Shown here piece after piece: positions 2,001-64,000 of a stretch of DNA of 64,000 nt. The stretch is taken from assembly GCA_043747595.1 (NCBI GenBank), contig JAYTOX010000058.1:22562-86561 (forward strand). The letters are read 5' to 3'. The notes under the pieces were generated by a model. It saw nothing but the letters and a program-made list of their open reading frames with translations, was not told the origin of the DNA and did no database searches. How positions within the stretch are numbered: position 1 is the first letter of the stretch; each line of letters opens with the position of its first letter. The DNA comes from Bacteroidota bacterium. Its GTDB lineage: Bacteria > Bacteroidota > Bacteroidia > AKYH767-A > 2013-40CM-41-45. Position numbers and translations under genes: made by a program.

Positions 2001-2225
2001 ATGGAAATAAAAAAACAACCAAGCAACGATCCTTTACATGGAAAAACATTGGAGTCGATCGTTAACTATTTAGTTGAACAATATGGATGGGATGAGCTAG
2101 GTGAACGAATTCCAATAAATTGTTTCAGGTCGAACCCAACTGTCAAATCGAGTTTAACCTTTTTAAGAAAAACACCCTGGGCACGAAAAAAAGTAGAAGA
2201 CCTATACATTGAAACTATTGAGTAA
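2001..2225 (+). CDS. VF530/DUF2132 family small putative DNA-binding protein
   Basis: The 74-aa product carries [56 protein letters not shown], a match to the conserved DUF2132 core. Confidence 0.6.
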
Positions 2226-2282
2226 AAATAATTTCCGATTTCACCTTATGTACTTATTCAGTTCGATTAAACTTATATAACA

Positions 2283-20944: not shown

Positions 20945-21402
20945 GAGGTAAAAAGTAAGAAGAGTAAGAAGTATGAAGTAAGAAGTATGAAGTAAGAAGT
21001 ATGAAGTAAGAAGGATGAAGTAAGAAGTAAGAAGTAAGAAGTAAGAAGTAAGAAGTAAGAAGTAAGAAGTATGAAGTATGAAGTAAGAAGTATGAAGTAA
21101 GAAGTAAGAAGGATGAAGTAAGAAGGATGAAGTAAGAAGTAAGAAGTAAGAAATAAGAAGTATGAAGTAAGAAGTTCGAAGTATTAAGTATGAAGTATGT
21201 CAAGGGGGACTCACCAATTACCACTCACCACTCACTAAAGAGAATGCCGTTCGGAATTAATAGTTGTTCTTCAAAAATAGTTCGTACATCTTACTAAACA
21301 TTCCGCTTTGCGGCAAAGGTCAAGTAGTAAGTAGTAAGTATGTCATAAATGGACGTGATTTTTTACTTACAACTTACCACTCACTACTTACCATTCTCAC
21401 TG
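20945..21402. repeat. compound repeat region: ~250-bp degenerate (GAAGTAA/GAAGTAT/GAAGGAT)n array + family A tail + family B unit + second family A copy
   Basis: The heptamer periodicity is visible by eye. The tail is GACTCACCAATTACCACTCACCACTCAC. A further copy ..TTTTTTACTTACAACTTACCACTCACTACTTACCATTCTCAC overlaps the CDS 3' end at 21374. Confidence 0.75.
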
Positions 21403-41229: not shown

Positions 41230-42294
41230 TTAAAAGAACTTTGGCATCTTATTATTATGACGTGAACGCTGACCGCGCTTGATCATTGAGACATACGAAA
41301 AATTAATTTCGATACTACTTGTTGAGGCAGCTGATGTTGAAAGCGACGACACATTGCTATCGTATGAAATACCAAGACCTAACGTGTTATACTCAACTCT
41401 TGCATTCACCACGATTGCATCGTCCCAACGATAAAATCCTCCGAGATAAAAATAGGCTTCTTTTTGATAATTGGTATAGCGTGATTTAAACTGAATCTTA
41501 TTTTTAAATAATCCTCCAAACATAATTTCTTTCTGCGAGCCTTGCGACATAAAAATTGCTTTCGGTAAAATCCACATATAGGCATCGCGTGTTAACGCAA
41601 TTTCTCCGGAAGAATGAATAGTAAGCTTGCGTTGAAGTGGCGATTCTTGCTTTAAAAAGAATGTAACATTTGGACTTCCAACATGCGACATAGCTGCTCC
41701 GATATTAAATGAATTTACTCCATCAGGAACATAAAAATAATTTAACCCTGCGTTGAAATCAAGATAAGAGAATTGTTGTAGCTGAATATTTTCAAAGCTC
41801 GAGGCAGTTGGATCGAATGCATCTCCATTCCATTGTGAATCCCATGTTGCTTTAGTAAGGTCGATCGATTGTTGATTTAAACCTGCTTGAAATCCGACAG
41901 TAAGAAACTGATCATTTTGATCTGTGAGTGCTTGCGTGTATGAAAGTGAGCCTTCAAAAATTGTATTACTGTATCCGGCTAAACCTGCTTTGTCTTGATA
42001 GATCAACACACCTATTCCGAAATAATTACTTCCGATCAAACCTTTTCCCAACGGTGCATCGGCGGAAATATGAAAAGTGGTATACCCTTCACCTAAACCT
42101 GACCATTGGCGGCGATACAAATTACTTATGCGAGCCTTACCATCAAAAACGCCGGTGTTAGCAGGATTAACCACTAACGGCGCATTATAGAATTGAGAAA
42201 AATGGACATCCTGTGCAAGCATAGGTGTTGCAAACTGCAATGCTAAAGCAAATAGTACAACGATTATTTTTATGTCTTTCAAAATTCTTCGCAT
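41230..42294 (-). CDS. T9SS outer-membrane protein PorP/SprF family
   Basis: The N-terminus QDVHFSQFYNAPLVVNPANTG is the PorP/SprF signature. The gene lies immediately downstream of the type B CTD cargo gene. Confidence 0.8.
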   Translation of the reverse strand: MRRILKDIKIIVVLFALALQFATPMLAQDVHFSQFYNAPLVVNPANTGVFDGKARISNLYRRQWSGLGEGYTTFHISADAPLGKGLIGSNYFGIGVLIYQDKAGLAGYSNTIFEGSLSYTQALTDQNDQFLTVGFQAGLNQQSIDLTKATWDSQWNGDAFDPTASSFENIQLQQFSYLDFNAGLNYFYVPDGVNSFNIGAAMSHVGSPNVTFFLKQESPLQRKLTIHSSGEIALTRDAYMWILPKAIFMSQGSQKEIMFGGLFKNKIQFKSRYTNYQKEAYFYLGGFYRWDDAIVVNARVEYNTLGLGISYDSNVSSLSTSAASTSSIEINFSYVSMIKRGQRSRHNNKMPKFF

Positions 42295-42311: not shown

Positions 42312-44384
42312 TTATCTTACTAAGGTTACACTTCCTGTTTTACTTATTGTTTTACCATCAGAATAATTGATTGTTACAACATAAGTAAAAACACCCGGAT
42401 TCAAATCTTTTCCTTTATAACTTCCATCCCATCCAATCGACGGATTGTTAGTTTCAAATATTAGTTCTCCCCATCTATCATAAACTGAAAAACGAACACC
42501 ATATAGATTATTTCCTCGTAAGAATAAATAATCGTTGTGGCCATCGCCATTTGGAGAGAAAGAATTTGGAACAAAGAAATCGTTGTTATGCAAAATCGTA
42601 ACTACTACTTGTCTTGTTGTTGTACAGCCGAAACCATCGGAGATTGTACAAATGTAAATTGTAGTTTCGAGTGGACTTGCAATTGGTGTTGGCGATGTAG
42701 CACTATCTAATCCAAGCGTCGGCGACCAACTGTATGTTAATCCTCCGCCTGCTGTCATCTGATAACTGCTTCCGAAAAACATAGAAGTATCGGGTCCAAC
42801 AAAAGCCGTCGGAACACTTTCAATTCGTATGTAAGAATATTTTATTACTGTGTCAGAACCATATTGATTCGTGGCGATGAGCTGAACATCGTACAAACCA
42901 TCGGTAGCATATTGTATTCCACCTGGATTTTGTTGGCTGGAAGTATCAACGATTGCCCCCGGAAAATACCACGACCAAGAAGTAAAAGGTCCCCCGGCAA
43001 TTATTTGTCCGGCAAAAGCAATTGAAACGCGCGAACAAGCCTGAGTAATATTAGCAGTAAAATCTGCTTGAGGCAACGGGCAAACATTGGCAAGAATATA
43101 ATTTGTTTTGGTTAATGAGTCGGTGCCATATTGATTACCTACAGTAAGAGTTACAGAGTAAGTTCCGGGAGTTGCGTAGCATACCGTTGGATTAGCAGAA
43201 GTGCTGGTAGAAGGATTTCCACCGGGGAACGACCATAACCAAGAAGTAGCACCACCGGTTGAAAGATCGGTGAATGAAATACATTCTCTCTCACAAATAA
43301 CAGAATCGCTTGCTACGAAATCAGGATTTGGAGGCGTACAAGCATTTACAACCATGTAATTTAATTTTGTGGCAGTATCACTTCCGGCAGGACTAGAAAC
43401 GATAAGCTGAACAGAATAAGTTCCGGGATTTGCAAAAACAATATTAGTAGGATTTTGCGCCGATGATGTTCCGGGAGTTCCGCCGATAAAAGTCCAATTG
43501 TAATTAAGAGCTATAGTAGTTGTATCAGCAAAAAAATTAACAGAACCGCCGGCACATATTACAGTATCGCTTGCAGTGAAATCGGCGATCGGTGTTGTTA
43601 AGCTTGCTAATAAAATACTATCGATTGCTACAGATGGATTGCTGATTCCAGCACCCAATCCAAGATTCTTCCAACGAAAGCCAATTTTAACAGCAGGATT
43701 ATTATTAGCAGATGTAGGCAAAGCAATAGTGTATAACGACCATTTAAAGATGGTAGTATCACTAGCACAAAAAGCAGTTCTTGGTAATTCTGCAAGAGTA
43801 GTCCAAGCGCTTCCGTTGTAATACTCTACAAATGTATTGTCATTATTACTTCCCGGCTCATCTAATTTTCCTAACAAATAATTGAAGTTAAGGACGAGCG
43901 ATGAAACTCCAATGCAATTTATCACCGGCGATTCAACACGTTTTTCTGTTACTTCAGTAAGCATGAATCCACCCGGATCGTAGATAGCACCGCAATCGCC
44001 ATACGGACAACTAATCGCGGCCGTGGTACTATTTTCAGAACCAAAAACATTTCCAATATGTAGCGATCTTTTTGTTTGCGCAGCATTGGTTTTGCAACCT
44101 TTTACAGCACAATTACCTGAAGTTTGTCCGGGTTCCGTGGCACTGATAAACCACTCATTGGCTTTGGTACCTTGAGTTCCGATCGGGCTCACGCTCCAAA
44201 CACCACCCGAAGATGGACTCAAATAACCGGCAGCGATAGCACCGGAATCGCAGATACCAGATGTTGACCCAAAATCATCGAAGAAAATGGGAGTTTGTGC
44301 ATTGGCCTTCACTCCACAAAAGATGGAAATGATTGCGATAACGATGTTTCGGTAAAGTTTACCGGTAAAGTATTGGTGATCCAT
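42312..44384 (-). CDS. PKD-repeat secreted protein with gliding-motility-associated (type B) T9SS C-terminal domain
   Basis: The C-terminus FFVPNSFSPNGDGHNDYLF..VYDRWGELIFE..WDGSYKGKDLNPGVFTYVV matches the type B CTD. Several PKD-like repeats are present. Confidence 0.7.
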   Translation of the reverse strand: MDHQYFTGKLYRNIVIAIISIFCGVKANAQTPIFFDDFGSTSGICDSGAIAAGYLSPSSGGVWSVSPIGTQGTKANEWFISATEPGQTSGNCAVKGCKTNAAQTKRSLHIGNVFGSENSTTAAISCPYGDCGAIYDPGGFMLTEVTEKRVESPVINCIGVSSLVLNFNYLLGKLDEPGSNNDNTFVEYYNGSAWTTLAELPRTAFCASDTTIFKWSLYTIALPTSANNNPAVKIGFRWKNLGLGAGISNPSVAIDSILLASLTTPIADFTASDTVICAGGSVNFFADTTTIALNYNWTFIGGTPGTSSAQNPTNIVFANPGTYSVQLIVSSPAGSDTATKLNYMVVNACTPPNPDFVASDSVICERECISFTDLSTGGATSWLWSFPGGNPSTSTSANPTVCYATPGTYSVTLTVGNQYGTDSLTKTNYILANVCPLPQADFTANITQACSRVSIAFAGQIIAGGPFTSWSWYFPGAIVDTSSQQNPGGIQYATDGLYDVQLIATNQYGSDTVIKYSYIRIESVPTAFVGPDTSMFFGSSYQMTAGGGLTYSWSPTLGLDSATSPTPIASPLETTIYICTISDGFGCTTTRQVVVTILHNNDFFVPNSFSPNGDGHNDYLFLRGNNLYGVRFSVYDRWGELIFETNNPSIGWDGSYKGKDLNPGVFTYVVTINYSDGKTISKTGSVTLVR

Positions 44385-45449: not shown

Positions 45450-46004
45450 TCACTCCATCTTTATCAATCTCTTTCTAAAAATATTTTTATCAGAAATTGC
45501 TTCGATAAAATAATTGCCCGAAGGAAGAAAACCAACATCAATCGTTTCATTTCCATTTACTTTTTTGGAATAAACTAGCGCTCCTAATTCATTGTACAAT
45601 TTTAATAAAATGTTTATTGGATAAACCGAATGAACCGACAATTCTTTCGTAATTGGATTCGGGTAAAATTGAATAGACTTATCATCAGATTCCTGTTCTT
45701 GAATTCCCGTTGAAAGTGAATCGCAAATACTTCCTATGACCGGGCCAAGGTTGTAGTTGACCATGTTTGGTAAACTTTGAATTGTCCGACCATTTCCTAA
45801 ATCAAAATAAGATTGTTGGTAATTGCAATTTACTCCCAAATTATCAGGAGTTAAAATTACATCCATGTGGTGAGTGTAATAAGTATTTGAAAAGGGCCCT
45901 TGGAAATTATCTCCCTTAGTTAAATAAATTCGATCATCAGGGCCTAATAGTATTTCTCCGCTAACGACGGATTTGCCACTCCCACTGCTTCGACGTTCCG
46001 ATAG
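45450..46004 (-). pseudogene. remnant of a T9SS cargo gene (CTD only) truncated at a REP/RAYT insertion
   Basis: The ORF ends with a T9SS CTD (IQFYPNPITKELSV...GNYFIEAISDKNIFRKRLIKME). It lacks a signal peptide and a functional domain. The upstream open frame runs into REP copy 45985-46023 and stops there. Confidence 0.4.
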
Positions 46005-46293: not shown

Positions 46294-47205
46294 TTTTAAG
46301 TCGTGGATATTCATCCACTATTCAAAGCTCATCGTCTTACAAATAACAATTAAATTTGATAAGGTGTAATCATGTATTAAAAAAATTCCTGCTCGACACG
46401 GTAGTAACAGGCGGTGTAAGACAATCAATTTCTAGAACATTAGGTAGGCCATAGTAATTACGAGCCGAGCTAAATAAGTAATCCTGTTCATTGTAAACAA
46501 TTTTATCTACTACCGGATTTCGGTGGATATAATTCAGTTTCTGCCATGTTACCCGTTCGGTGTACAGTTCAATTGCATGATTTTTATCTTGCCAAATTTT
46601 ATGGTTTCTGTTTTTGGGATGTATTTTACCGGCATAAGCAAATTTGTCCAGTAGCCATTCCCTGCGACTCTCCGCTTCGTTCTCAATTACAAGAACTGCA
46701 TTTTTTGAGGTATGCCGTTTGAAATCCCTTACTACATGGTCGAGATCGAACGGCATTTTAGTGTTGGCTATTAGGTGCAAGTGACTTGGCATTAAACACC
46801 AGCCGAAAATATTTAGCCCTTTATTTTCTTGGCAATAGTTCAATGAGTCAACGATGAGTTGTTTTTGGTTTACACGAGTAAAAAGATCGATCCAATCAAC
46901 AACTGTCATCGTCATGAAATAAGTTTTGTCTTTGCGAATGTTATAATGAAGCCCTCTTGACATGATAAAATTAATTTTGTCAAAAATAATAGTAAGCAAT
47001 TCGCCGATCAATGATCATTTCTGTTTCAACCTTATAATTTCCATCTTTAATTAGTGAAATTGGCTGGCAAAGGTTTTTTAAAAGTGTAGCGATTGCTTCG
47101 AACGAACTGATGTATGCATTTAAATACGATGAGCTTTGAAGAGTGGATGAACATCCACAGCTAAAATACAACGGACGATTCCGATAGCTATCGGAACGTC
47201 GAAGC
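46255..47205 (-). mobile_element. REP-RAYT-REP unit (domesticated IS200-like transposase with flanking REP hairpins in inverted orientation)
   Basis: The architecture is read directly from the sequence. It matches the canonical RAYT/REP organisation. Confidence 0.6.
46370..47011 (-). CDS. REP-associated tyrosine transposase (RAYT; IS200/IS605-like HUH Y1 transposase)
   Basis: The HUH motif is CLMPSHLHLIA and the catalytic-Tyr block is YIHRNPVVDKIV. The gene is flanked by inverted REP copies (46255-46293 and 47169-47205). The true start may be the internal Met at 46963. Confidence 0.7.
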   Translation of the reverse strand: MIGELLTIIFDKINFIMSRGLHYNIRKDKTYFMTMTVVDWIDLFTRVNQKQLIVDSLNYCQENKGLNIFGWCLMPSHLHLIANTKMPFDLDHVVRDFKRHTSKNAVLVIENEAESRREWLLDKFAYAGKIHPKNRNHKIWQDKNHAIELYTERVTWQKLNYIHRNPVVDKIVYNEQDYLFSSARNYYGLPNVLEIDCLTPPVTTVSSRNFFNT

Positions 47206-52134: not shown

Positions 52135-52884
52135 TTACTTATTAGCTTTCTTGATATATTGTTCAAGCGCCATAGTCATAGAAGGGGCCGCAGGAACAGG
52201 AGCTTGAATATCTAAACGGAGGCCGGCATCGGCCACAGCCTGAGCGGTAGTAGGACCAAAAGCGGCGATGCGCGTATTGTTTTGTTTGAATTTCGGAAAA
52301 TTTTTGAAGAGAGAGGTGATTCCTGAAGGGCTAAAAAATACGAGCACATCATAGTTTACCTCCGCCAGATCGGAGAGGTCGGAGGCTACCGTTTTATAAA
52401 TAACAGCTTTTGTATAATCGATTGAAAAAGAATCGAGTGTTTCAAAAATTTCTTGTTTGTGAATATCAGTACAAGGAACAAGAAATTTTTCTTTTTTATG
52501 CTTTTTGATTAGGTCCATCAGATCGTTGATGGTTTGTTTTCCAAAAAAGATCTTACGTTTTCTATAGACTACGAATTTTTGAAGGTAATAAGCAGTTGAC
52601 TCAGAGATGCAGAAATACTTCATGGTTTCAGGAACAGTGACACGCATTTCAATGCACATGCGGAAAAAATTGTCGGCAGCATTTCGGCTGGTCAAAATTA
52701 CTGCAGTATGCTCAGCAATATTCACTTTATCTTGCCTAAAATCTTTGGCAGCAATCGGCTCTACATGAATAAACGGTCTGAAATCAATTTTAAGGTTGAA
52801 TTTCTTCGACAAATCGAAATAGGGCGACTTTTCTGTTTCGGGCTTTGGCTGTGTAACCAGGATACTTTTAACTTTCAAACTCAT
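52135..52884 (-). CDS. hemD: uroporphyrinogen-III synthase
   Basis: Has the HemD-like fold pattern (ILVTQPKPE..., two-lobed with about 250 aa). The assignment rests on overall similarity only. Confidence 0.6.
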   Translation of the reverse strand: MSLKVKSILVTQPKPETEKSPYFDLSKKFNLKIDFRPFIHVEPIAAKDFRQDKVNIAEHTAVILTSRNAADNFFRMCIEMRVTVPETMKYFCISESTAYYLQKFVVYRKRKIFFGKQTINDLMDLIKKHKKEKFLVPCTDIHKQEIFETLDSFSIDYTKAVIYKTVASDLSDLAEVNYDVLVFFSPSGITSLFKNFPKFKQNNTRIAAFGPTTAQAVADAGLRLDIQAPVPAAPSMTMALEQYIKKANK

Positions 52885-52930: not shown

Positions 52931-53827
52931 TTAAGACCACATAATTCGTATCAAAATCATCAAGGGCGCAATTTCAAGAGTGCAAAGATATAAAAATAAG
53001 TAAAGCAGCGAGAAAGTTGACGTACTGAGTCCAATAAGAATACCCCTAAAAATTCGATAACCGAAGGCAAGGCCAACAATAGAAAGCCCTAAAACAATAA
53101 ACCAATGGGAAGAGAACACCTGATTATAGGCCATTAAAAAAATAAACGGAAGCAGAACAATTCCAAGTATGTTATTGATAAGAAACGTATTGAAAATATA
53201 AGTGGCCATTTCTCTTTCTAAATTAAAGAGCCGGCCGGCAATTTTCAAGATCAGAAATTTCAGTGCATAAACGAGTGAAATCAGGACTGCAAAAAGGAGA
53301 AAACGATTGAATCCGGAGCCTACTCCTCCCAGTCTCCAGCCATAATTCAAGCTTATTAGATAAAGAAAGAGCGCTGCTATGAGATTAAAAACGAGACTTA
53401 AATACGTTGACGTTCGCTGAACGAGTATATTTTCATCCCTAACAATCTGATTGGTGAGATTATTATTGACAAAAGCCAATACCATTTGCGAAAAATATTT
53501 GGTGTAAAAAATTCGTAAAGCGGCATAAACACCTAAAACTAAAAGGAGAATTGGAAAAAACCAATCGGGCGATGAGGCTGTTTTTGAAATTGGTGTTTCG
53601 TTGGCAGGATGAAGAAAATGGCCATGATAGAGGTTGGAATACACAGGTCTATTGGCAGAATCGGCTGCATAAAATGCGAGCGTATCGAACTTCCATGCAG
53701 CTCGCATTGAACTATCGATGTTAGATTTTTGAACAAGCCCTTCTGGTTTACTGAAAATATACATCGACGAATCATTCGAATGAAACGCAGAAGAATCAGA
53801 AAAAAAAACAGTAGAATCGGGCGACAT
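52931..53827 (-). CDS. DUF4271 domain-containing membrane protein
   Basis: Has multiple TM helices after a soluble N-terminus. It carries DUF4271-like blocks and lies in the typical position next to hemD in Bacteroidota. Confidence 0.55.
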   Translation of the reverse strand: MSPDSTVFFSDSSAFHSNDSSMYIFSKPEGLVQKSNIDSSMRAAWKFDTLAFYAADSANRPVYSNLYHGHFLHPANETPISKTASSPDWFFPILLLVLGVYAALRIFYTKYFSQMVLAFVNNNLTNQIVRDENILVQRTSTYLSLVFNLIAALFLYLISLNYGWRLGGVGSGFNRFLLFAVLISLVYALKFLILKIAGRLFNLEREMATYIFNTFLINNILGIVLLPFIFLMAYNQVFSSHWFIVLGLSIVGLAFGYRIFRGILIGLSTSTFSLLYLFLYLCTLEIAPLMILIRIMWS

Positions 53828-54075
53828 TTAGAGTAGGAAACCTATAAGTAGAGAGTTTTTTGATGGCAACTATCTGCAAAGATAAATTCAATTTACAATT
53901 TAATACGCTTTGAAATTTAAAATGTTGCTAAAGGCAGAATTGAAGTAGGCCAGGAATTTAAAATTGGGTTCGAAAGAAAAAGTGGGAAAAGCAGCCTCTC
54001 AGTTTACGAAGCGGTATTGCTATTTCTCAAAAGATTCGTATTTATACGTTATCGATAAAGAAAAACCAAGAGCAA

Positions 54076-54978
54076 TTATTTCTTTGTCGTAGTTTTTGGA
54101 TCGCCTACCAACTTGAACATTCTGGAAATATTAAAGCTAAATTTAAATCCTCCCTTTTGCCACGAGTCCATAGTATTAACCAGGTAATCGTTTTCCAAAA
54201 TACCCGAGGCATTACTGAACATGATTGTAAATACGTGGCCGCCGGTTTCTATTTCTATTCCGGCTCCAATTACATCTGTATGCTGAAGGACCAATCGATT
54301 TCGATTCAATGTATTGGAATAATCAAAAATAATTGAAGCGCTTGGAGTAAATTTAAATCTGAACCCTCCAGATAAACTGAACGTATTGTTATCATCATCG
54401 GCAGGAACAAAATTTCGGTGAACATATGTTGGTATTACGACAACACTAAAACGAGAGGAAAATTTTCTGGCTAGTATCAGTTGCGAAACATAAACTAAAC
54501 GATAAGCGTCGCTCGTATAATCCATTCTATCTTGGGTAGAATAAGTTAAATTAGCAAAACCGGAAAGCGAAAAAGGAATTGAATTATTTTCAGTTTGATC
54601 GAGTAATCGAAATTTAACAAGTCCTTCTAAATCTTCATTCCTTTTGCAACGGCTCACACCAATCATAATATGGTCCGTTAGTCCGTAATGAAACCCAATT
54701 CGAATATCGCTCGACTGGTCAAAACCATATAAGTTATGAAATCCGCCGCCGCTTTGTGTGCCAACATTTCCGAAGAGATGGCTTATACGCACATCTAAGT
54801 TTTTTTTCTTGACAGTTTCGTTTGTGTGGATATTAATTAATTTATTTCCTTTAAACATACCGATTACCGGTAAATTAGATTTCGGTTTTTCATTTTGCAA
54901 TAATTTAAGGAGATCGTCTTGAGCAAAAAGAAAGGTAGGCAAGAAAAAGAAAAGTAAGTAGAGTAAATATTTATTCAT
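54076..54978 (-). CDS. DUF5777-like outer-membrane beta-barrel protein (paralog of 46..936)
   Basis: Has a signal peptide (LLYLLFFFLPTFLFAQ). Shares the blocks DVRISHLFG, VKFRLLDQTENNSIPFSL and IEIETGGHVFTIMFSN with 46..936. It is the last gene of the operon. Confidence 0.6.
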   Translation of the reverse strand: MNKYLLYLLFFFLPTFLFAQDDLLKLLQNEKPKSNLPVIGMFKGNKLINIHTNETVKKKNLDVRISHLFGNVGTQSGGGFHNLYGFDQSSDIRIGFHYGLTDHIMIGVSRCKRNEDLEGLVKFRLLDQTENNSIPFSLSGFANLTYSTQDRMDYTSDAYRLVYVSQLILARKFSSRFSVVVIPTYVHRNFVPADDDNNTFSLSGGFRFKFTPSASIIFDYSNTLNRNRLVLQHTDVIGAGIEIETGGHVFTIMFSNASGILENDYLVNTMDSWQKGGFKFSFNISRMFKLVGDPKTTTKK

Positions 54979-55538
54979 TTATTAATAACGTTTTTACCGG
55001 TTGCACGATAATCTAAAGTAACATTCACATCTATAATTTCTGCAATATTATGAAATAATAATTTCGGAACAGTAATATTAAAATCTTTTAATGCAACTTT
55101 GAAATTGGAGTTGATAGAGAAAGTGTTTCCATCTTTCTTATAAACCCCGTTTAGCTCAAGTTCTTTTTCAACTCCATGGATAGAAATAATTCCTTTAGCA
55201 GTAACATTATGTTCTCCATCAGAAAATGTTGCAATGGAATCTTGAATTATTCCTTTGAAGGAGGCCATAGGAAACTTATCGCTTTCCATATATTTTTCAT
55301 TGAAATGTTCTTCCATCAATTCTTTAGCGAAATGAAAATTTCGGATAGGAATAACTACGGCAATTTCATTGGTTGAACTATTAATAAAACTTGCAGCCTG
55401 TTTATTTTCTGCTTTAATATCTTCAATGGGAGCATGAGAATAAAAAGTAACAATCCCGCTCACCGCATTATATATGTTTTGCGAAAACGATGGAGTGCAG
55501 TAAATAATTAAAAAAAGAATCAGTGTTATTTTTTTCAT
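54975..55538 (-). CDS. YceI-like (lipocalin-like, polyisoprenoid-binding) periplasmic protein
   Basis: Has a signal peptide and YceI-like blocks (VSGIVTFYSHAP...; ...ITVPKLL...IEIIDVNVTLDYRA). It overlaps the DUF5777 gene by 4 nt. Confidence 0.65.
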   Translation of the reverse strand: MKKITLILFLIIYCTPSFSQNIYNAVSGIVTFYSHAPIEDIKAENKQAASFINSSTNEIAVVIPIRNFHFAKELMEEHFNEKYMESDKFPMASFKGIIQDSIATFSDGEHNVTAKGIISIHGVEKELELNGVYKKDGNTFSINSNFKVALKDFNITVPKLLFHNIAEIIDVNVTLDYRATGKNVINK

Positions 55539-55539
55539 T

Positions 55540-55902
55540 TTATTTTTCGGGGTAACCTTGTTGAATCCACGATTTCAATTGAAAGTAATCGCATTCACTA
55601 ATATGATACTTTTCGGGCATGTGCTGAGGGTCGTTCAAAGGGAGGTCTATTCTGTATTCTATGGTTCCCGAACGAATTCGATTGACAACTGTTTTATAGT
55701 TGGTATAATCATAAGCGCCTTTTCCTCCGGGTGCATGACATTCAGTAAAATTGCAATTCGCATTCAAGATCGGTAAAATATTGGTGTTAAATGTAAATCG
55801 AACGCTATCACAATTATTCGGACGGAAAATAGTTTCAACCATCTTTTCCTTTGTACAAGAAATTATGGTTAAGCAAAAAAGACCGATCCAAATAGATTTC
55901 AT
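55540..55902 (-). CDS. small Cys-rich lipoprotein, PSCyt1-like with C-x4-C-H motif (third paralog)
   Basis: Has a lipoprotein signal (LFCLTIISC) and carries ILPILNANCNFTECHAPGG...MPEKY...LKSWIQQGYPEK. The internal Met is chosen as the start. Confidence 0.5.
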   Translation of the reverse strand: MKSIWIGLFCLTIISCTKEKMVETIFRPNNCDSVRFTFNTNILPILNANCNFTECHAPGGKGAYDYTNYKTVVNRIRSGTIEYRIDLPLNDPQHMPEKYHISECDYFQLKSWIQQGYPEK

Positions 55903-55971
55903 ACTTGAATCAAATATAGGAAAAGGAATCTGTCTTAGCAATTCAATTTACATGAACTGCTTCAATAAAAT

Positions 55972-56646
55972 TTAAAAAATAGCTTGTGTTCTTTCCACAA
56001 CCCAGTAAAGAGCGATTAACGAAATACAGAGAGAAACAGGAATAGTCACAAATTTTCGATACCAATTTTGGTCAGAAAAACGAGTTTGGAAAACGATAAT
56101 GGCAAGAAAAATAACGGCCGTTTGTCCTGCTTCTACGCCAATATTAAACGATATCAGAGCCGACATAAAATCCTTTTCAGGCAAACCGATATCTGCTAAG
56201 ACGCCGGCAAATCCTAGTCCGTGGATAAGTCCGAATAAAAAAACGACGATAAGCCTCCACCACTTCAGTTCTGTTATTAAAATATTTTCTACTCCAATAA
56301 AAACTATTGATAGCGCAATTAAAGGCTCAACTATTGCTCCTTGCGGATGAATCATATTGTTCATCGCCAGTGCCAATGTTATGGAATGAGCAATTGTAAA
56401 ACACGTTACTTGAGCCAAAACAATTTTTAATTTCGGATTAAATAAAAATATGCCTAATACAAATAAAATATGATCGAAACCAAGAGGAAGAATGTGTTGA
56501 AATCCAAGTTTCAGATATTCCCAAAACAAATTGACCTTCGACATACCCTCAAGATCGTAAGCCATAGTGTGAGCTGAGCTTGAAAATGAAATCAAGGTAA
56601 ACAAGCAAAAGCTGATCAAGAATTTATTTTCGGTATTCAACTTCAT
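55972..56646 (-). CDS. HupE/UreJ family metal (Ni/Co-type) transporter
   Basis: Has 6 TM helices. His-rich motifs (HILPLGFDHILFVLG, HGLGFAGVL) are in TM segments, as in HupE/UreJ. The start overlaps the TPR gene stop (ATGA). Confidence 0.65.
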   Translation of the reverse strand: MKLNTENKFLISFCLFTLISFSSSAHTMAYDLEGMSKVNLFWEYLKLGFQHILPLGFDHILFVLGIFLFNPKLKIVLAQVTCFTIAHSITLALAMNNMIHPQGAIVEPLIALSIVFIGVENILITELKWWRLIVVFLFGLIHGLGFAGVLADIGLPEKDFMSALISFNIGVEAGQTAVIFLAIIVFQTRFSDQNWYRKFVTIPVSLCISLIALYWVVERTQAIF

Positions 56647-57974
56647 CAGTTAGCGGCTAAATAATTTTTATTTTCCCATTTCAACAAAACAGGTAAAAAC
56701 GGATTTGTACTTAAAGCCGATTGAATCAGCTTTACACCTTCAACACGGTTTCCTGATTTACTGAGTATAAGTCCGGCTTGATAATGAAGAACTGGATTCT
56801 GTGAATTCGTTCTTAAAGCTCTCACGACATATTTATTTGCTTTTTCAAAATCGCCTCGTTTGTAATATACCCAAGCTAAAGTTTGCTCAACATCAATATT
56901 ATCGGGACGGCGATTATATTCTATCAAAGCATGTTTTAATGCTTTGTTATAATCATAGGCGTTAATGTACGCGATAGCAAGTTCTTTATCGGCATAATGA
57001 CCATGATTTTTAACGCTCTCATCACCACTCACGCCAGCAAGCAATTCAATGGTTTTCTGCGCAGCTATGTATGCTAATTTAGGTTGGTTACTTATTCGAT
57101 ATACTTCCGACAACTCTTCTTCAAAAGAGAAATCGTCGATTATAGCAATGGCTTTTTTCAAATAATTAATTGAAGCAATGTAGTTACGCTTTGCTTTTTC
57201 AATGCGAGCCAAACCTGCATAAGCAAAAGAAAAAATAGGGCGATAATAGATTGCTGTTTCATATTGAAGTTGCGCTGAATCGAGCTGACCAGTTTGCTCA
57301 TACAAATGTCCGAGTTGAATTCGCGTCCATTCTGTAGCTTCCATTCCGGGATAGCCGGACTGAAGCGATAATTTCATTGCACTGATTGCTCCTGGATAAT
57401 CGCCATGAATTTCTCTTAAGTAGGAAATTCTACTATACGATCGATTATCAGGACGAAGTAATGCCATTTTATCGGCCATCACAATTGCATTTTGGTAGTC
57501 GCCATTTTCTACAAATGCATCGGTGAGAATTCCATAAACAGCAGTGCTATAAGGATTGATTCGTTGTGCATCTACAGCTATTGGAATTGCATCAGAAAAA
57601 TGATGTTGCGATAAAAGCACAGTTGCCTTTCCTATTAAGGATTCAAAATTTGTTGAATCTTTTTTAAGTACACTGCTAAAAAGTTCCAATGCCTTCGGAT
57701 CATAATAAGCATGCTCTCCTGATTCTCTCGACTCTTGAATATATGCAAACCCTAACTTCACTTTTGCTTCTTGGTTTTCAGGATTGATGCGAAGCGTTTC
57801 GATAAGCGATTGAATCGCTGCTTTACTATTAATCCATTCATTAGAAGATGCTGATTGACCTTGACGAATTTTAATTCCAAGTTTCAACTGATCAGGAGTT
57901 CTAAATTCTATGATTGCAAAAGAAAAGATGCTCACAAAAGAAAGAAGAAAAATGTATGCGATATTTTTTTTCAT
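56646..57974 (-). CDS. tetratricopeptide repeat protein (periplasmic/membrane-anchored)
   Basis: Has multiple TPR-like helical repeats and an N-terminal TM/signal (MKKNIAYIFLLSFVSIFSFAII). Confidence 0.65.
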   Translation of the reverse strand: MKKNIAYIFLLSFVSIFSFAIIEFRTPDQLKLGIKIRQGQSASSNEWINSKAAIQSLIETLRINPENQEAKVKLGFAYIQESRESGEHAYYDPKALELFSSVLKKDSTNFESLIGKATVLLSQHHFSDAIPIAVDAQRINPYSTAVYGILTDAFVENGDYQNAIVMADKMALLRPDNRSYSRISYLREIHGDYPGAISAMKLSLQSGYPGMEATEWTRIQLGHLYEQTGQLDSAQLQYETAIYYRPIFSFAYAGLARIEKAKRNYIASINYLKKAIAIIDDFSFEEELSEVYRISNQPKLAYIAAQKTIELLAGVSGDESVKNHGHYADKELAIAYINAYDYNKALKHALIEYNRRPDNIDVEQTLAWVYYKRGDFEKANKYVVRALRTNSQNPVLHYQAGLILSKSGNRVEGVKLIQSALSTNPFLPVLLKWENKNYLAAN

Positions 57975-58052
57975 GGTTCGAGTAATTGAAAAGATATATT
58001 TAAAAATAAGGACCGAAGCGATACACACTTCGGTCCTTGCTAAAAACAACCA

Positions 58053-60128
58053 CTATTTAGCAATAGTAATTTTGATAGATTGAACTGTTGATCCATTGTT
58101 TTGAAGCACTGCAAAATAATTGCCCGACGTTTGACTTAACCACTTCACTTCGTAGCTATCGGCATCACGCATTTCATTGTTAACAGGAACAGCAACTATA
58201 CGACCCATAGAATCATAAATCTTCAAAGTTACTTTCGTTTTTGAAGTAACACGGAATTTAATATTTACCGATTCAGTAGATGGATTTGGATACGATTCCA
58301 TTAAAAGTTGAGGCGAACCTACATTCAATCCGCCTGTTGGATTAACAGCAGTGAGTACATAGCCTCCTGTACATAATCCATAACCACTCCATGGCAATTG
58401 AACATAAGGAAATGATGTGCGGAAAGTAGTATCGTTTTGCTCAACACCTGTAGTATAACCCAAAACACCTAGCAATTGAGGAGTAAGCGGACTATTTCCA
58501 ATTGTATAATCGTCGTAGAACAATCCAACTGCTGCAAGAGCGGCACCCGATACAGCTTGAAGTTCAATACGAGTTACATCATCTTCCAAACGACGACCAT
58601 TCGGGAATCCATCCATATTCGGAATATTTTGAATTGCAGTAGAAGTATTGAAACGACTATCTGTTAATCCAAGAACTGCTGCCTGAATAATACCAAGTGA
58701 GCTAAAGTCGGCCGAGTTACGAGCTGTAACCGGAACCGCCATATTAAGACGTAACATATCTCCAAAAGTTGGAAGGAAGTTATTGATGAAAGGTTTTCCG
58801 GCTGATAATGGATTACCTGGAGTTTTCCCTGTGAATAATTGATACGGTGCAAGATTCGGAACGCCTGTGTAGAAGATTGGAAGTAAATCGGCTGAACGTG
58901 GTTTACCCGCGCGCAATAAATATTTTCCGAAGATGGCAGTATCAAGTGCAGTACCTTGCGTAGCAGCATTGCCATACAATACATACAATCCATCGTGTGT
59001 ATTTCCAAAATCTACATTTCCTAAAACAGTTGGAGATGCGCGTTGAATTCTTAGGCTCGACAATGCCGGAACTGCTCCGCCAAACAAACTGTCGTCCATA
59101 TAAAGTCCAAGCTCCGGATTACAGAAATAATCATCGAAGTATGTAGAGTCTTGATAAGGAGTAAGGCTATTCCAAAAATCTTTCATACCAATTGGAATAA
59201 CAGCTTCATTAGTTAAAGGCATTCCTAAGCGAGAAACTTGAACGAAATTTCCTGTGTGTGATTCCGTTCCATTACCATTAAGTGTGCGAATGGCTGGACG
59301 ACTAGCAGAAGCCCATACACCGATAACGAAATCGCCATCGAGAATACTTGAAGCTTGCGCAACTGTCTTACCATCTTTTTGTAAGTCAGAGATATTTATT
59401 TTTAGAGCAATAACATGAACGTTTTTACATTTCAATCCATCTTTTGGAGCATCTACACCGGTACCACCAGCACGAGTTTGACCGAGGTCAAAAATTCCAC
59501 CTAAGTCAACAAAAAACGGATCGTCGGCAGGACCACAATAAACAGATTCTCCACTAGTAGCAGTTGTAATTGCATTGGTAAAGAGTGTTTCGTAGTCAGG
59601 TGAATTTAATCCTACACCTGAAGAAATAGACCGCGGGCCAATATTTGGTGGCGGCACAATTCCATTGGTTACGATTGTTGAAAAAGCTCCACCATTTACA
59701 CTTTTCTCTGCTGTGTAAGTTGTTTTCAAATTCTCTGCACCTAATCTGATATTAAAAAACGTTGATGGATCTTGATTTACTTTAGCGAAAGTGAAACGAT
59801 AAGTAATGTCGTCGCCTGCTGTTGCACCATTATTTTTTACGTGAATTTCATAACGAACATTTTCTCCGAATGAAAAATAATTTGGTCCGCCTTGCGGTAA
59901 TTCTGCAGGAACATAGGCTGCAATAATTGTTACTTTGTTCGAATCTTGCGGATCGCGGAAGGCATACAGATCTGTATTATCTGCAACCGGATCGTTACTA
60001 ATAAGCGGAGCTTCACGATGGCTCGACGCTGTCAACTGATTCTGTTGACTTGCAAAGAAAAGTCCTCCACCAATAAGGAGAAGGGCTATTGAAGCAATAG
60101 AAAGTCGTTTTTTTGTAGACGTTTTCAT
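58053..60128 (-). CDS. DUF4331 domain protein with T9SS C-terminal sorting domain
   Basis: Has a signal peptide followed by SSHREAPLISNDPVADNTDLYAF, the hallmark DUF4331 N-terminus. The C-terminus ESYPNPSTESVNIKF...GNYFAVLQNNGSTVQSIKITIAK is a T9SS CTD. Confidence 0.7.
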   Translation of the reverse strand: MKTSTKKRLSIASIALLLIGGGLFFASQQNQLTASSHREAPLISNDPVADNTDLYAFRDPQDSNKVTIIAAYVPAELPQGGPNYFSFGENVRYEIHVKNNGATAGDDITYRFTFAKVNQDPSTFFNIRLGAENLKTTYTAEKSVNGGAFSTIVTNGIVPPPNIGPRSISSGVGLNSPDYETLFTNAITTATSGESVYCGPADDPFFVDLGGIFDLGQTRAGGTGVDAPKDGLKCKNVHVIALKINISDLQKDGKTVAQASSILDGDFVIGVWASASRPAIRTLNGNGTESHTGNFVQVSRLGMPLTNEAVIPIGMKDFWNSLTPYQDSTYFDDYFCNPELGLYMDDSLFGGAVPALSSLRIQRASPTVLGNVDFGNTHDGLYVLYGNAATQGTALDTAIFGKYLLRAGKPRSADLLPIFYTGVPNLAPYQLFTGKTPGNPLSAGKPFINNFLPTFGDMLRLNMAVPVTARNSADFSSLGIIQAAVLGLTDSRFNTSTAIQNIPNMDGFPNGRRLEDDVTRIELQAVSGAALAAVGLFYDDYTIGNSPLTPQLLGVLGYTTGVEQNDTTFRTSFPYVQLPWSGYGLCTGGYVLTAVNPTGGLNVGSPQLLMESYPNPSTESVNIKFRVTSKTKVTLKIYDSMGRIVAVPVNNEMRDADSYEVKWLSQTSGNYFAVLQNNGSTVQSIKITIAK

Positions 60129-60522
60129 ATTCTAATGAATTTGGTTAATAATAAATATTGATAGATTTAATTAAACTTTAGAACACTTACGTGAGTAGAG
60201 AACAGGTTGGATTGCCGGAAATGCTAATTTAATTGAAAATAAAAATGATGTCATTAACTGAGAGGAAAAAAATATGAAATTGCCGTAGTTTAGTGGAAAA
60301 TGAATACTTTTTGGCACCCTTTATTGAAAAGAGCAAAAAGAAAAGTCTAAAACAACTTCAGCAATTCACTCATGATTAGGAAAAAAAGCTAGGAGAGAAC
60401 TATATCGAATAAATTTGATTTCATTTGAAATAAAATCAACTTAAAAAAAGGAGTAATAACCTGATAAAGTTTATTTCGAAAATTTTCTGATGACATAATT
60501 TCTACTCGGATTAAAAAGAATT

Positions 60523-61758
60523 TTATTCCTCAATAACCAATCGTTTAGAAATCGTTAGATTTTTAACTAAAATTTTTACAATATAGATCCCTGAAGGAAT
60601 CCACTCTAAATCAACCTTATCATTGTAACTTTCTTTTTCCATCACAAGTTTTCCATAGATATTGTAAATAGAAATATGTTTTAAAGAAAGATACTGATCA
60701 GCATCTGAAAATAAAAGTTGAAAACTATTTCCGGCAGGATTAGGGAATAAATCAATTGAGTTAGATCCGGTTTTATTCTCCTCTATCGAAGTCGCTATGT
60801 CAACTGTATGTCGAACAATTACTTCATTATCTAAAATAACATTTGTGCTCCAAATAAATTGTGCGTCGTTTGAAGCATCATCAAAAATATTTGTAAAATT
60901 AGTATACGCCGGCTTATTATTTACTCCAATTGTAGCATTTGAATAAAGAGTAGCGGCCGGCCACAAACTGTCATTGAAAGTAGGTTCAGACCAATTTGCC
61001 GGACGACTCCAATGCAAACCATAGAAGGATGTTCCGTTATTGACATCTGCTGTTGAACAATTATTCGACAAACGCAACGAACCATTTTCTGTCGGACAAG
61101 TGAGATCGGTAATTGGTGCTGTATAAAAAGTTTGCGCTTTCCAGTCGCTGCCGGTCTTTGCAATAATAGTGTTGTTGGCATCTTTAAAAACTGCAACCAT
61201 TCCACCATCGCCATCATGATATTGAAATCCGTTGCTCACTTCGGAACCTAATCCTAAATGTTCTTCCCAATCAACCAATAGCATGGCAATGGTAAAAGGT
61301 CTGCTCACTCGAAATCTTACAATATTTGAATTGAACTGCGTATACGGAACATTGTCTTTCCCAACAGGAATTCCATTAATATACATTTCAAAATAATTAT
61401 CTGCAAAAATAAAAGCAGTGATCAATTCACCATTCGGATCAATGGTAATAATGTCAGAACCATTGAGGGCAGCAAGTGCTGCTGAGCTATTTGTGAAATT
61501 TGCACCATTGCAAACGTTGTTTAAATCTGAAGCAAATGGAAATGTACTATTCAAATAATTTATAACTGCCGGAACTACCCAAACTGAATTATCGCTAGCT
61601 ACAATGGTTCCTACTCCGGCTATTCGTCCACTTGTACAAGTGTATAAATTACTTGTTGTAGTTGTTGCTAAGCCTTGAGTAACCGAAGCTGTTCCTAAAT
61701 ATTGAGAATATGAATTGAATGAAATAAATAAAAGTAAACTAAAGGCAAGTTGTTTCAT
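60523..61758 (-). CDS. secreted protein with T9SS C-terminal sorting domain
   Basis: Has a signal peptide. The C-terminus LFPNPAGNSFQLLF..SGIYIVKILVKNLTISKRLVIEE is a T9SS tail. Confidence 0.55.
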   Translation of the reverse strand: MKQLAFSLLLFISFNSYSQYLGTASVTQGLATTTTSNLYTCTSGRIAGVGTIVASDNSVWVVPAVINYLNSTFPFASDLNNVCNGANFTNSSAALAALNGSDIITIDPNGELITAFIFADNYFEMYINGIPVGKDNVPYTQFNSNIVRFRVSRPFTIAMLLVDWEEHLGLGSEVSNGFQYHDGDGGMVAVFKDANNTIIAKTGSDWKAQTFYTAPITDLTCPTENGSLRLSNNCSTADVNNGTSFYGLHWSRPANWSEPTFNDSLWPAATLYSNATIGVNNKPAYTNFTNIFDDASNDAQFIWSTNVILDNEVIVRHTVDIATSIEENKTGSNSIDLFPNPAGNSFQLLFSDADQYLSLKHISIYNIYGKLVMEKESYNDKVDLEWIPSGIYIVKILVKNLTISKRLVIEE

Positions 61759-61804: not shown

Positions 61805-63466
61805 TTATTGATGAATTAATTTAAACGTTTTAATTTCATTAATACATTTTAAACTTAATAAATAAATTCCTTGACTTACATTCCCTTCAATACTGAAAGA
61901 ATAATTTTGCCCTTCATTTAATTTTACATTTTTATTTTCTTGAATAATCTGCCCTGTACAATCGTATAATGTTATCGTAACATTATTTAATTCCAACGAA
62001 GAAATAATTTCTACTTTCATATTAAAAGGATTAACCACTTGAATCATTGAAGTCGCACTAAAAGCCGGTTCATCAACTGAAGTGATCATATTACAATTAT
62101 ATGCAATTGGATTTAATTCAATAGGGCTGCCGGGAGTAAGCGTTTGTCCGTTGAAACCCGAATAGTTAATAGGATAATAAGAGCATCTGAAAACTGCATT
62201 CATTACAGGAGTTGTTCCTTGACTCACTATTCCGTTTTGCCCTATCGGATTTACATATCGCCAAACTGTAGTTTTAGTTGAATCGATTTCAAAAAAATTT
62301 CCTTTCGAGCCTTCACAAATAATTGTATTTCCATTTGGCAATCGTTGTGCGCCTGAGATATTCATCGAATAAAAGTCGGTTGGTGTTGATGCAGCATATT
62401 TCCAAAAAGCAGAATCGGGAAGAAAAGGAAGATTAGTTGCAATTGAATAATTCCCTAACGAATCGATTGGAGGAAAAAACTGATCGATGGTTGAATAACT
62501 ACCGCCAGGTCTTCCGGGTCCATTATTAAAAAGCAAAATACTTCCGGCATTTGGCATCCCGTTTTCAATCCAGCGAGCATTATGTTGACCGAATAATTTT
62601 TTATCGCTCGCAGTACCTCGATTATAAGCCGCAGCGTTTCCCCATCGATACATCAAATCTCCACCTCTTGAATGAACACCTCCGCTATGTGAAGATGACT
62701 CAATAGTTGAAGTGCTGTGATCGATAATCCACACTTCACTTAAGTTATGTGCACTTAAAATTATTTGATCGAGAGTCGGGTTATAGTCGAGTGCATTGCA
62801 ATGAAGCCAATCGGCAGCAGTACTTGCAGTAAAATTTAGATTGATTAATTCAGGATGCTGGGAAACATTTCCATAGTTCGCTTTTGTAGAATCGAAATCT
62901 TGAATCAAATGATCCCAAGCATGCCACTCCCAAACAATATTTGCAGCATTGATTCCGACAGGCTGCAACTCTACAATTTTTTCAGACCAGAGTGTTGTAC
63001 CAAGCAACGACGGATTTCTTCCGGCGGCAATTGCTTCATTTGAAGTTTTTAATTCCCATACAATTGCCAGAACGTTTCCATTTGGCAATACTCGAATGTC
63101 GTGGTGTTGACATTGCGTTGTAGAAGACAATGTGTACGACCAAATCAAGTTACTATTCCAATCAAATAATTCAACTATTCCTCCATTTCCACCGGCAGTG
63201 AAAACATTGTTGTTAGTACTTCCCGGACGTAAGAGATTTCCATCTTGCAAAAGATAAACAGACTGACCGGGGTGATGAGTTCCTGCCCAAGAATGAACTA
63301 AGTATCCGCACTTGTCAATCAGATAAGAATTGTTTGAACTAATAGGAGAGAACAAAACATACCCATTTGCAGAGCCAACATTTTGCGTAAATAATCCAAC
63401 CGTTTGCTGGGCTAATAAATTATACGAGCAGACAATTGCAAAGATAAAGAGTACAATTTTTTTCAT
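61805..63466 (-). CDS. arylsulfotransferase (ASST)-like beta-propeller protein with T9SS C-terminal domain
   Basis: The N-terminal block GLFTQNVGSANGYVLFSPISSNNSYLIDKCGYLVHSW resembles the ASST family start. The C-terminus has a T9SS CTD. The start is set at the internal Met MKKIVLF. Confidence 0.45.
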   Translation of the reverse strand: MKKIVLFIFAIVCSYNLLAQQTVGLFTQNVGSANGYVLFSPISSNNSYLIDKCGYLVHSWAGTHHPGQSVYLLQDGNLLRPGSTNNNVFTAGGNGGIVELFDWNSNLIWSYTLSSTTQCQHHDIRVLPNGNVLAIVWELKTSNEAIAAGRNPSLLGTTLWSEKIVELQPVGINAANIVWEWHAWDHLIQDFDSTKANYGNVSQHPELINLNFTASTAADWLHCNALDYNPTLDQIILSAHNLSEVWIIDHSTSTIESSSHSGGVHSRGGDLMYRWGNAAAYNRGTASDKKLFGQHNARWIENGMPNAGSILLFNNGPGRPGGSYSTIDQFFPPIDSLGNYSIATNLPFLPDSAFWKYAASTPTDFYSMNISGAQRLPNGNTIICEGSKGNFFEIDSTKTTVWRYVNPIGQNGIVSQGTTPVMNAVFRCSYYPINYSGFNGQTLTPGSPIELNPIAYNCNMITSVDEPAFSATSMIQVVNPFNMKVEIISSLELNNVTITLYDCTGQIIQENKNVKLNEGQNYSFSIEGNVSQGIYLLSLKCINEIKTFKLIHQ

Positions 63467-63470
63467 TTTA

Positions 63471-64000
63471 TTATTTACGTAAGTGGATTTGGCATCCGAT
63501 TGATTTTGTTTCTTTAATTTGTATTTCATTTCCTTTTAATAAAGCGTCAACTGCACTTTCAATATACTTTGTCGTTACTTTAGTAGGCTCAGCTCCGTTA
63601 TCATCTATAGCTCCATTGTATTTCACAATATAAGCACCCTTTTCTTTCCAGATTACGAAAGCGTGTGGAGTTTTTTGAGCTTGAAAGTTTTTGGCAACAG
63701 TTTGAAATCCGTCGTACAGATAAGGGTAATTAAATTTTTCGGCTTTTGCCTTAGCAATCATTTTCAGATATGAATCCTCTTCATAAGTAAGCGTATCGGT
63801 CGAACTAATAGCGATAACCGGTACATCAAGCGATTTGTATTTTAGGTTCAATTTGTTAATTCGTTGAGGATATAACTTAGCAAATGGGCAATGGTTGCAG
63901 GTAAAAATAATTACAAAGCCTTTCGCTTTAGGATAATCTTTTAAAGAAACATTTTTTCCATTAATATTTTTTAAAGAAAAATCGTTTACGCTTTTGCCAT
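63471..64000 (-). CDS. TlpA/ResA-like thiol:disulfide oxidoreductase (thioredoxin fold), N-terminus beyond window end
   Basis: The in-frame upstream extension gives GFVIIFTCNHCPFAK, a CxxC motif. AhpC/TSA-redoxin-like blocks follow. The frame is open at the window edge. Confidence 0.65.
   Translation of the reverse strand, partial: GKSVNDFSLKNINGKNVSLKDYPKAKGFVIIFTCNHCPFAKLYPQRINKLNLKYKSLDVPVIAISSTDTLTYEEDSYLKMIAKAKAEKFNYPYLYDGFQTVAKNFQAQKTPHAFVIWKEKGAYIVKYNGAIDDNGAEPTKVTTKYIESAVDALLKGNEIQIKETKSIGCQIHLRK

Follow-up and report, generated by a model that had tools for sequence, protein, structure and literature searches.

The proteins considered here are three small lipoproteins, P1, P2 and P3, encoded in a 64,000-nucleotide stretch of a Bacteroidota bacterium genome (assembly GCA_043747595.1, contig JAYTOX010000058.1, positions 22,562 to 86,561), the whole of which is referred to below as the window. 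The sequence family closest to them is PSCyt1 (PF07635, the Planctomycete cytochrome C domain), with which they share the block F..(D)I.PIL...C..CH. PSCyt1 domains are usually the N-terminal module of large multidomain proteins and have two residues between the cysteines of the haem motif, whereas the window proteins are stand-alone lipoproteins of 120-130 residues with spacers of four or six. By fold, the nearest described proteins are PccH (GSU3274), a monohaem cytochrome of Geobacter sulfurreducens (PDB 4RLR, PF22297), and FoxE, the dihaem Fe(II) oxidoreductase of Rhodobacter ferrooxidans SW2 (PDB 5MAB), which also matches at the profile level. Sequence identity with PccH is only 18% and, unlike P1, PccH has a canonical CXXCH motif. 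It is not known to be a lipoprotein or to partner a DUF5777 barrel, the type of outer-membrane protein encoded beside the window lipoproteins. FoxE is a soluble periplasmic protein of the foxEYZ operon with two canonical CXXCH domains and, unlike P1, P2 and P3, has no adjacent outer-membrane barrel.

The four-residue spacer has been described in proteins of another kind. Cytochrome c3, whose haems are bis-His ligated, carries CX4CH as P3 does. In the tetrahaem protein of D. vulgaris (PDB 2CTH), the haem II site, CGTAGCH, has nearly the same composition as CTQSGCH of P3; D. vulgaris cytochrome c3 chains in the PDB contain CGTAGCH and CKKSKCH, and the solved structures prove that haem is attached covalently. 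In hydrazine dehydrogenase, haem 3 is likewise bound through CX4CH (PMC6469936). Both are multihaem proteins of unrelated fold, whereas P1 and P3 have a class-I-like fold with a single putative haem site and a predicted Met ligand. The described haem motifs, according to a recent survey, are CXCK, CX2CK, CX3CH, CX4CH, CX11CH, CX15CH and CX17CH (PMC11492766). CX4CH is precedented as haem chemistry, but not in a monohaem His/Met fold nor as a family-wide alternative.

For the combination of cytochrome and barrel, the described system nearest in layout is Cyc2, an iron oxidase of Fe(II) oxidisers, both neutrophilic and acidophilic, in which a monohaem cytochrome is fused to a porin. The Cyc2 barrel has approximately 16 strands. 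As proposed for the window pairs, Cyc2 couples a monohaem cytochrome c to a single beta-barrel of the outer membrane, but it does so in one polypeptide with canonical CXXCH; the window has two genes, a lipid anchor and a smaller, predicted 12-stranded barrel. Cyc2 is in this sense a minimal redox unit of the outer membrane. Its role is cited in PMC10734462.

On balance, P1, P2 and P3 are probably lipid-anchored cytochromes c, each with one covalently attached, His/Met-ligated haem and an expanded attachment loop, and act as redox partners of the DUF5777 barrel. The genes and the codons of interest are as follows.

55540..55902, minus strand: P1, a 120-residue, cytochrome-c-like lipoprotein with CX4CH (CNFTECH)
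55735..55755, minus strand: codons of the P1 motif Cys50-Asn-Phe-Thr-Glu-Cys55-His56, a putative haem attachment site with proximal ligand
55615..55620, minus strand: codons of P1 Met95-Pro96, a putative distal haem ligand
940..1329, minus strand: P2, a 129-residue lipoprotein with CX6CH (CGSGDSNCH)
1150..1176, minus strand: codons of the P2 motif
1018..1023, minus strand: codons of the P2 Met-Pro
1333..1716, minus strand: P3, a 127-residue lipoprotein with CX4CH (CTQSGCH)
1561..1581, minus strand: codons of the P3 motif
1414..1419, minus strand: codons of the P3 Met-Pro

All three genes are clean open reading frames (ORFs) on the minus strand. A plus-strand reading of the three coordinate ranges was rejected, as its translations are stop-rich. 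The initial annotation gave the correct coordinates without stating the strand, and its description of three small lipoproteins sharing a lipobox Cys, a C-x4/6-C-H block and a downstream Met-Pro...W..G is borne out, except that P3 has 'GI' where the proposed block has 'PI'. In P1, the lipobox is IISC (Cys16), followed by C50-NFTE-C55-H56, M95-P96 and W112..G116; P2 has FTSC (Cys17), C52-GSGDSN-C59-H60 and M103-P104; and P3 has LSAC (Cys20), C46-TQSG-C51-H52 and M100-P101. The N-termini of P1, MKSIWIGLFCLTIISC, and P2, MKKIFAICLVMAAFTSC, and that of P3 are hydrophobic ahead of the lipobox, and the combination of signal peptide and lipobox Cys that marks bacterial lipoproteins predicts lipidation of all three. 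For P1, the ATG at 55902 yields a proper lipoprotein signal peptide; the mechanically listed ORF begins at a TTG at 55941. Pairwise identity among the three proteins is 19-26%. Among the columns invariant in all three are the lipobox Cys and those of F, I, C, CH, Y, P, W and G. Searching all six frames of the window with the family profile returned exactly P1, P2 and P3.

The close relatives obtained by homologue searches form 95 clusters; these small lipoproteins come from uncultured Bacteroidota and are annotated as 'hypothetical protein' or, for members with the canonical motif, as 'cytochrome c'. An alignment of 77 relatives shows no change at C16, C50, C55, H56, P96 and W112 (P1 numbering), and conservation of 90% or more at M95, I45, Y69 and G116. 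Identity between subfamilies is 19-30%. That the haem-signature columns are the most conserved despite such divergence indicates that the shared pattern is not due to chance.

Two further cysteines occur in P1 (Cys31, within 'CD[ST]', and Cys104), in P2 and in the SCYYD-type relatives, where they are either both present or both absent; P3-type proteins have neither. From this covariation, the pair is probably a structural disulfide, which would fit an exported protein. Such a bond (Cys31-Cys104 in P1) would staple the N-terminal segment of P1 and P2 to the C-terminal helix.

Profile and fold comparisons both point to cytochromes. P3 matched PSCyt1 with an E-value of 0.0018 and, weakly, Cytochrome_CBB3; at E<0.01, 27 of the 77 aligned relatives matched PSCyt1 (best 1.3e-6), 16 of the 77 matched Cytochrome_CBB3, and 3 matched the PccH Pfam family. 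Searched against the PDB, the family profile matched cytochrome c6, FoxE, the alpha subunit of hydrazine synthase and cytochromes c551/c552. In its alignment with cytochrome c6 (3dr0), C..CH falls on the haem-binding CxxCH and MP on 'MP', with a 2-residue gap placed exactly within the motif. The NCBIfam scan gave a weak resemblance to cytochrome c551 and a distant one to the LIC11213 family lipoprotein of Leptospira (NF047812; 18.5 bits for P1 and 21.1 bits for P3, below the 100-bit cut-off). The cytochrome-c/PSCyt1-like scaffold proposed in the initial annotation is thus upheld: similarity to cytochrome c domains, whose absence it had named as the counter-evidence, was looked for and found.

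The predicted fold of P1 matched only PccH and FoxE. Class I cytochromes c have an all-alpha fold with N- and C-terminal helices, and the P1 model is likewise all-helical. Their distal Met, which usually belongs to a Met-Pro, lies approximately 40-50 residues past the CH; P1, P2 and P3 all have a Met-Pro in the corresponding place. The literal CXXCH is absent on account of the spacer (four residues in P1 and P3, six in P2), although both Cys and the His are kept. Judged from the profiles and the model, the scaffold has the cytochrome c fold in the form shared by PSCyt1, PccH and FoxE.

The spacer varies within the family. Among the 95 close relatives, it is four residues in 50, six in 29, two in 14 and five in 3. 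The motif is close to uniform in two clades, CNF(T/S)ECH in that of P1 and CTQSGCH in that of P3. The 'SCYYDN' lipoprotein clade, which includes P2, holds all four lengths: CISCH and CLSCH (x2), CGTSSCH (x4), CGTNNSCH (x5), and CGSQDLACH and CGSGDSNCH (x6). One related locus, L014 (related loci carry L numbers here and below), has the gene order of the window, a P3-type CX4CH lipoprotein, an SCYYD-type lipoprotein and DUF5777, and its middle gene has the canonical CISCH. P2 is therefore the positional counterpart of an ordinary cytochrome c.

The spacer also varies on a larger scale. An exhaustive profile search (E<=1e-3) placed 44,991 representative clusters in this cytochrome-c-like family, and a local domain parse was limited to the best 150 of these, proteins with 2-8 tandem copies of the domain. 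C-xn-CH was carried by 459 of the 462 parsed domains, the 3 exceptions being truncated ends. CXXCH accounted for 278 of the 462 and CX4CH for 171 (37%), with a few x3, x5, x6 and x7, and CXXCH and CX4CH domains alternate inside single polypeptides. All 171 CX4CH domains kept the downstream Met-Pro, and their consensus is C-[AGT]-x-[ST]-G-C-H, which closely resembles the CGTAGCH of cytochrome c3. CX4CH, which the initial annotation had called rare, is therefore not so in this family, at least among these 150 clusters. Overall, it is likely that P1 and P3 bind haem; for P2, the case for haem is evenly balanced.

In L014, a 261-residue lipoprotein (4637..5422, minus strand) near the lipoprotein-DUF5777 pair and adjoining a YceI gene ends in this domain, with the motif CSISGCH, behind an N-terminal region to which no domain is assigned. 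The CX4CH domain is thus also a module of larger lipoproteins.

The initial annotation had missed the most informative gene context, an obligate pairing with the gene of a DUF5777 protein, a predicted outer-membrane barrel, either directly or across a YceI gene. At locus A, on the minus strand, the order is P3, P2 and DUF5777, with 3-nucleotide gaps between the genes. At locus B, also on the minus strand, the order is DUF4331, TPR, HupE/UreJ_2, P1, YceI and DUF5777. The neighbours are as follows.

46..936, minus strand: DUF5777 outer-membrane barrel, copy A (Pfam DUF5777, 6.8e-86), 3 nucleotides downstream of P2
58053..60128, minus strand: DUF4331 protein of 691 residues with a C-terminal sorting domain of the type IX secretion system (T9SS)
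56646..58049, minus strand: TPR protein of 467 residues
55972..56646, minus strand: HupE/UreJ_2 membrane protein of 224 residues
54975..55538, minus strand: YceI-like periplasmic protein (Pfam YceI, 6.3e-12), starting 2 nucleotides past the P1 stop
54076..54978, minus strand: DUF5777 outer-membrane barrel, copy B, its start overlapping the YceI stop

We examined eleven contexts: both window loci, L001/L002, L003/L004, L005/L006, L013, L014, L015, L016, L017 and one locus listed without DNA. In all eleven, a lipoprotein gene of the family lies directly upstream of DUF5777, in some with YceI between them, and lipoprotein and barrel are separate genes rather than fused as in Cyc2. The P3-P2-DUF5777 layout recurs in L003 and L004, and the P1-YceI-DUF5777 triad is conserved in L001, L002, L007-L011, L013 and L016. 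YceI is interposed in the P1-type loci and L013, and not in L017 or loci of the locus A type. In L017, a P1-type lipoprotein gene at approximately 5560..5990 (plus strand; CSGRSCH, ...HMPF...WIHQGYKNN), directly upstream of DUF5777, is uncalled in the public annotation; small members of the family are probably under-annotated.

The genes upstream of P1 are less constant. Only in the window, L007, L010 and L012 is P1 found with the DUF4331-TPR-HupE block, which a pair of extracytoplasmic function (ECF) sigma and anti-sigma factors replaces in L001, L016 and L017. The block was therefore rejected as an obligate part of the unit, being absent from L001, L008, L016 and L017. A TAnnTTTG-like box (TATATTTG), found by eye approximately 9 nucleotides upstream of the P1 ATG, is a weak hint of a separate promoter for P1. 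A scan of 53800..60600 for sigma-70 promoters and terminators did not exceed shuffled expectation, Bacteroidota promoters being outside the coverage of the tool, and an Rfam scan of the whole window returned no RNA family.

DUF5777 proteins have a signal peptide and a C-terminus resembling that of outer-membrane proteins, and the AlphaFold model has 12 strands (predicted local distance difference test score, pLDDT, 77). The DUF5777 profile found no match among PDB sequences, and no papers on DUF4331 or DUF5777 came up in a literature search. Eight DUF5777 copies with 27-37% identity were compared: the two from the window and those from L001, L003, L005, L013, L014 and L015. Invariant in all eight are H67 (DxRxxHxFG), H187 (PxxxHxN) and H248 (TGGHxF), together with several Arg, Lys and Asn. 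This conservation, unusual for a plain 12-stranded pore, suggests that DUF5777 holds a bound ligand, a metal or a catalytic site.

In L005 and L015, the lipoprotein has the canonical motif, and it and DUF5777 sit among genes for a hexahaem lipoprotein, a 4Fe-4S protein (Fer4_11) with a twin-arginine translocation (Tat) signal, NrfD, single-pass proteins of 280-294 residues and further cytochromes c. This setting is unmistakably a redox one. On these marine Flavobacteriia-like contigs (L015, 409..7033; L005, 4444..13012), the pair is embedded in repeated units of a small Tat-signal protein, the Tat-signal 4Fe-4S protein, NrfD, the 280-294-residue protein and a cytochrome c, with the hexahaem lipoprotein additionally in L015. 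The repeated units look like an uncharacterised quinol-linked periplasmic electron-transfer system. Versions with the canonical motif occur in Lutibacter-like and Chitinophagales strains.

Within the window itself lies the gene of a cytochrome c peroxidase (CCP) of the di-haem type (24104..26032, plus strand), in which CASCH occurs twice, so the organism must mature c-type cytochromes. This CCP_MauG protein is unusually long at 642 residues; its CCP domain begins at approximately residue 315, and the N-terminal half has no Pfam match.

If P1, P2 and P3 are cytochromes, they would be exported by Sec and lipid-anchored, and would belong to a PSCyt1/PccH/FoxE-like branch of the class I cytochromes c. 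The cytochrome c maturation system of the organism would link haem covalently to Cys50 and Cys55 of P1, Cys52 and Cys59 of P2, and Cys46 and Cys51 of P3. The iron would be bound proximally by the His after the second Cys and distally by the Met of the Met-Pro, giving a six-coordinate His/Met one-electron carrier in which the spacer of four or six residues forms an enlarged loop at the haem edge. Each cytochrome would be co-translated with a 12-stranded DUF5777 barrel and, at locus B, with a YceI-like protein that may bind a lipid or an isoprenoid/quinone. Together they would form an outer-membrane-associated redox unit, in which electrons would move, in either direction, between the cytochrome and a partner that the barrel binds or lets through. 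For the relatives with canonical motifs, the pair would be the outer end of a chain comprising the hexahaem lipoprotein and quinol-linked modules of the NrfC/NrfD type.

Several observations weigh against assigning P1, P2 and P3 to the cytochromes c and pairing them with the barrel. In the PF07635 search that the initial annotation had proposed, P3 reached 19.3 bits where the gathering cut-off is 22, and single-sequence Pfam scans returned no match for P1 or P2. Because both this cut-off and the literal CXXCH are missed, the three proteins are best filed as a variant of the small class I cytochromes. No gene for cytochrome maturation, whether a dedicated CcsA/ResC-like haem lyase or another, appeared in Pfam scans of nearly all ORFs of the window, and long spacers such as CX15CH need a dedicated lyase. 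CX5CH and CX6CH are missing from the list of described haem motifs (PMC11492766), and a literature search for them found no paper using these terms. Among the 120 best DUF5777 homologues, all stand-alone proteins of approximately 300 residues, there is no cytochrome-DUF5777 fusion. Finally, the haem sites of P1, P2 and P3 are putative ones read from the sequence, and the physical complex with DUF5777 is proposed from gene order only.

The initial annotation had left the choice between c-haem and a non-haem metal site; c-haem is now clearly favoured and the metal site disfavoured. The proteins could be haem-free descendants of the cytochrome fold in which Cys2-His and Met coordinate a metal (Cu, Zn, Ni or Fe) or supply a structural disulfide, and which serve as a metal chaperone or lid for a DUF5777 barrel engaged in metal uptake. 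Cys2-His-Met would, from general chemistry, be a plausible set of ligands for a soft metal. The non-canonical spacing, the want of a described haem precedent for CX6CH and the three invariant His of DUF5777 would also suit such a role, as would the HupE/UreJ-type membrane protein, TPR protein and secreted DUF4331 protein that P1 follows in the window and in L007, L010 and L012. That block, however, is missing from L001, L008, L016 and L017, where the lipoprotein-DUF5777 pair persists, and the same operon slot is filled elsewhere by family members with canonical CXXCH. The alternation of CX4CH with CXXCH inside single proteins, the Met-Pro of every parsed CX4CH domain and the resemblance to the proven haem site of cytochrome c3 likewise make a metal site unlikely. 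Less probable again is that the motif Cys pair is a redox-active dithiol/disulfide in a protein resembling thiol-disulfide oxidoreductases and unrelated to haem. Two conserved Cys a few residues apart in an exported protein would be expected of such an enzyme, but the all-helical P1 model matches cytochromes and lacks a thioredoxin-like fold, a dithiol role explains neither the invariant His after the second Cys nor the distant Met-Pro, and redox-active dithiols hold a fixed spacing whereas the spacer here runs from 2 to 6 residues. We consider this reading highly improbable.

A split outcome concerns P2. In this case, the CX4CH proteins P1 and P3 would be true haem c proteins, and P2, with CX6CH, would have a single thioether, bind haem non-covalently or have lost it, as a non-redox paralogue in the P3-P2-DUF5777 operon. 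Solved structures provide a precedent for CX4CH and none is listed for CX5CH or CX6CH (PMC11492766); moreover, in the loci seen (the window, L003 and L004) the P2 clade always stands beside a P3-type CX4CH partner. Yet both Cys, the His, the Met-Pro and the Trp are invariant across the 29 P2-clade clusters while the spacer residues vary, which would be unexpected of a defunct site, and the far longer spacers of CX11, CX15 and CX17 carry haem (PMC11492766). We therefore regard this outcome as rather improbable. Returning to covalent haem in all three proteins, a bolder proposal is tentative and somewhat doubtful: that the cytochrome lipoprotein and DUF5777, with or without YceI, are an undescribed and widespread outer-membrane electron-transfer module of Bacteroidota, a two-gene analogue of Cyc2, whose motif expanded stepwise from CX2CH through CX4CH and CX5CH to CX6CH while functional. 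Were this so, CX5CH and CX6CH would be new natural haem c motifs, and the haem would be attached either by the usual System II lyase or by a dedicated lyase that has escaped recognition.

If P1 and P3 carry haem, CX4CH would be a common motif of a very large monohaem/PSCyt1-like family rather than a curiosity of multihaem cytochromes, and c-type cytochromes would be under-counted in Bacteroidota and in metagenome censuses. Such proteins are currently annotated as 'hypothetical' because motif and hidden Markov model (HMM) searches expect CXXCH. If P2 carries haem, CX6CH, for which no description was found, would be a new natural motif, and the orthologous x2/x4/x5/x6 series would offer a ready means of testing how much spacer variation the System II haem lyase tolerates, a question still open in cytochrome c biogenesis. 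The strict linkage to DUF5777 offers a first clue to the function of this domain, and the analysis suggests that many Bacteroidota possess a minimal outer-membrane redox unit.

Other features of the window were recorded. HEM4, the gene of uroporphyrinogen-III synthase (52135..52884, minus strand), follows downstream of the P1 operon, and its product is 90-98% identical to the corresponding proteins of L001, L007, L008 and L010. For the neighbouring genes in these loci, identity is only 45-75%; such conservation is unexpectedly strong for HemD. The window is also rich in type IX secretion cargo, with six Por_Secre_tail proteins, one of them arylsulfotransferase-like.

2338..3474: Por_Secre_tail protein
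10357..11043: Por_Secre_tail protein
21374..23968: Por_Secre_tail protein
45450..45866: Por_Secre_tail protein
60523..61758: Por_Secre_tail protein
61805..63529: Por_Secre_tail protein
42312..44384: PKD protein with a CHU_C domain, adjoining the PorP/SprF gene at 41230..42294

A 213-residue ORF at 46370..47011 (minus strand) has a weak match to an IS200-like Y1 transposase (E-value 5e-5, close to the cut-off). A small ORF at approximately 2041..2230 (plus strand) is situated between locus A and a T9SS cargo gene. In L003, a VF530 gene (PF09905) is similarly placed near the P3-P2-DUF5777 locus and, judged by position, the small ORF may correspond to it.

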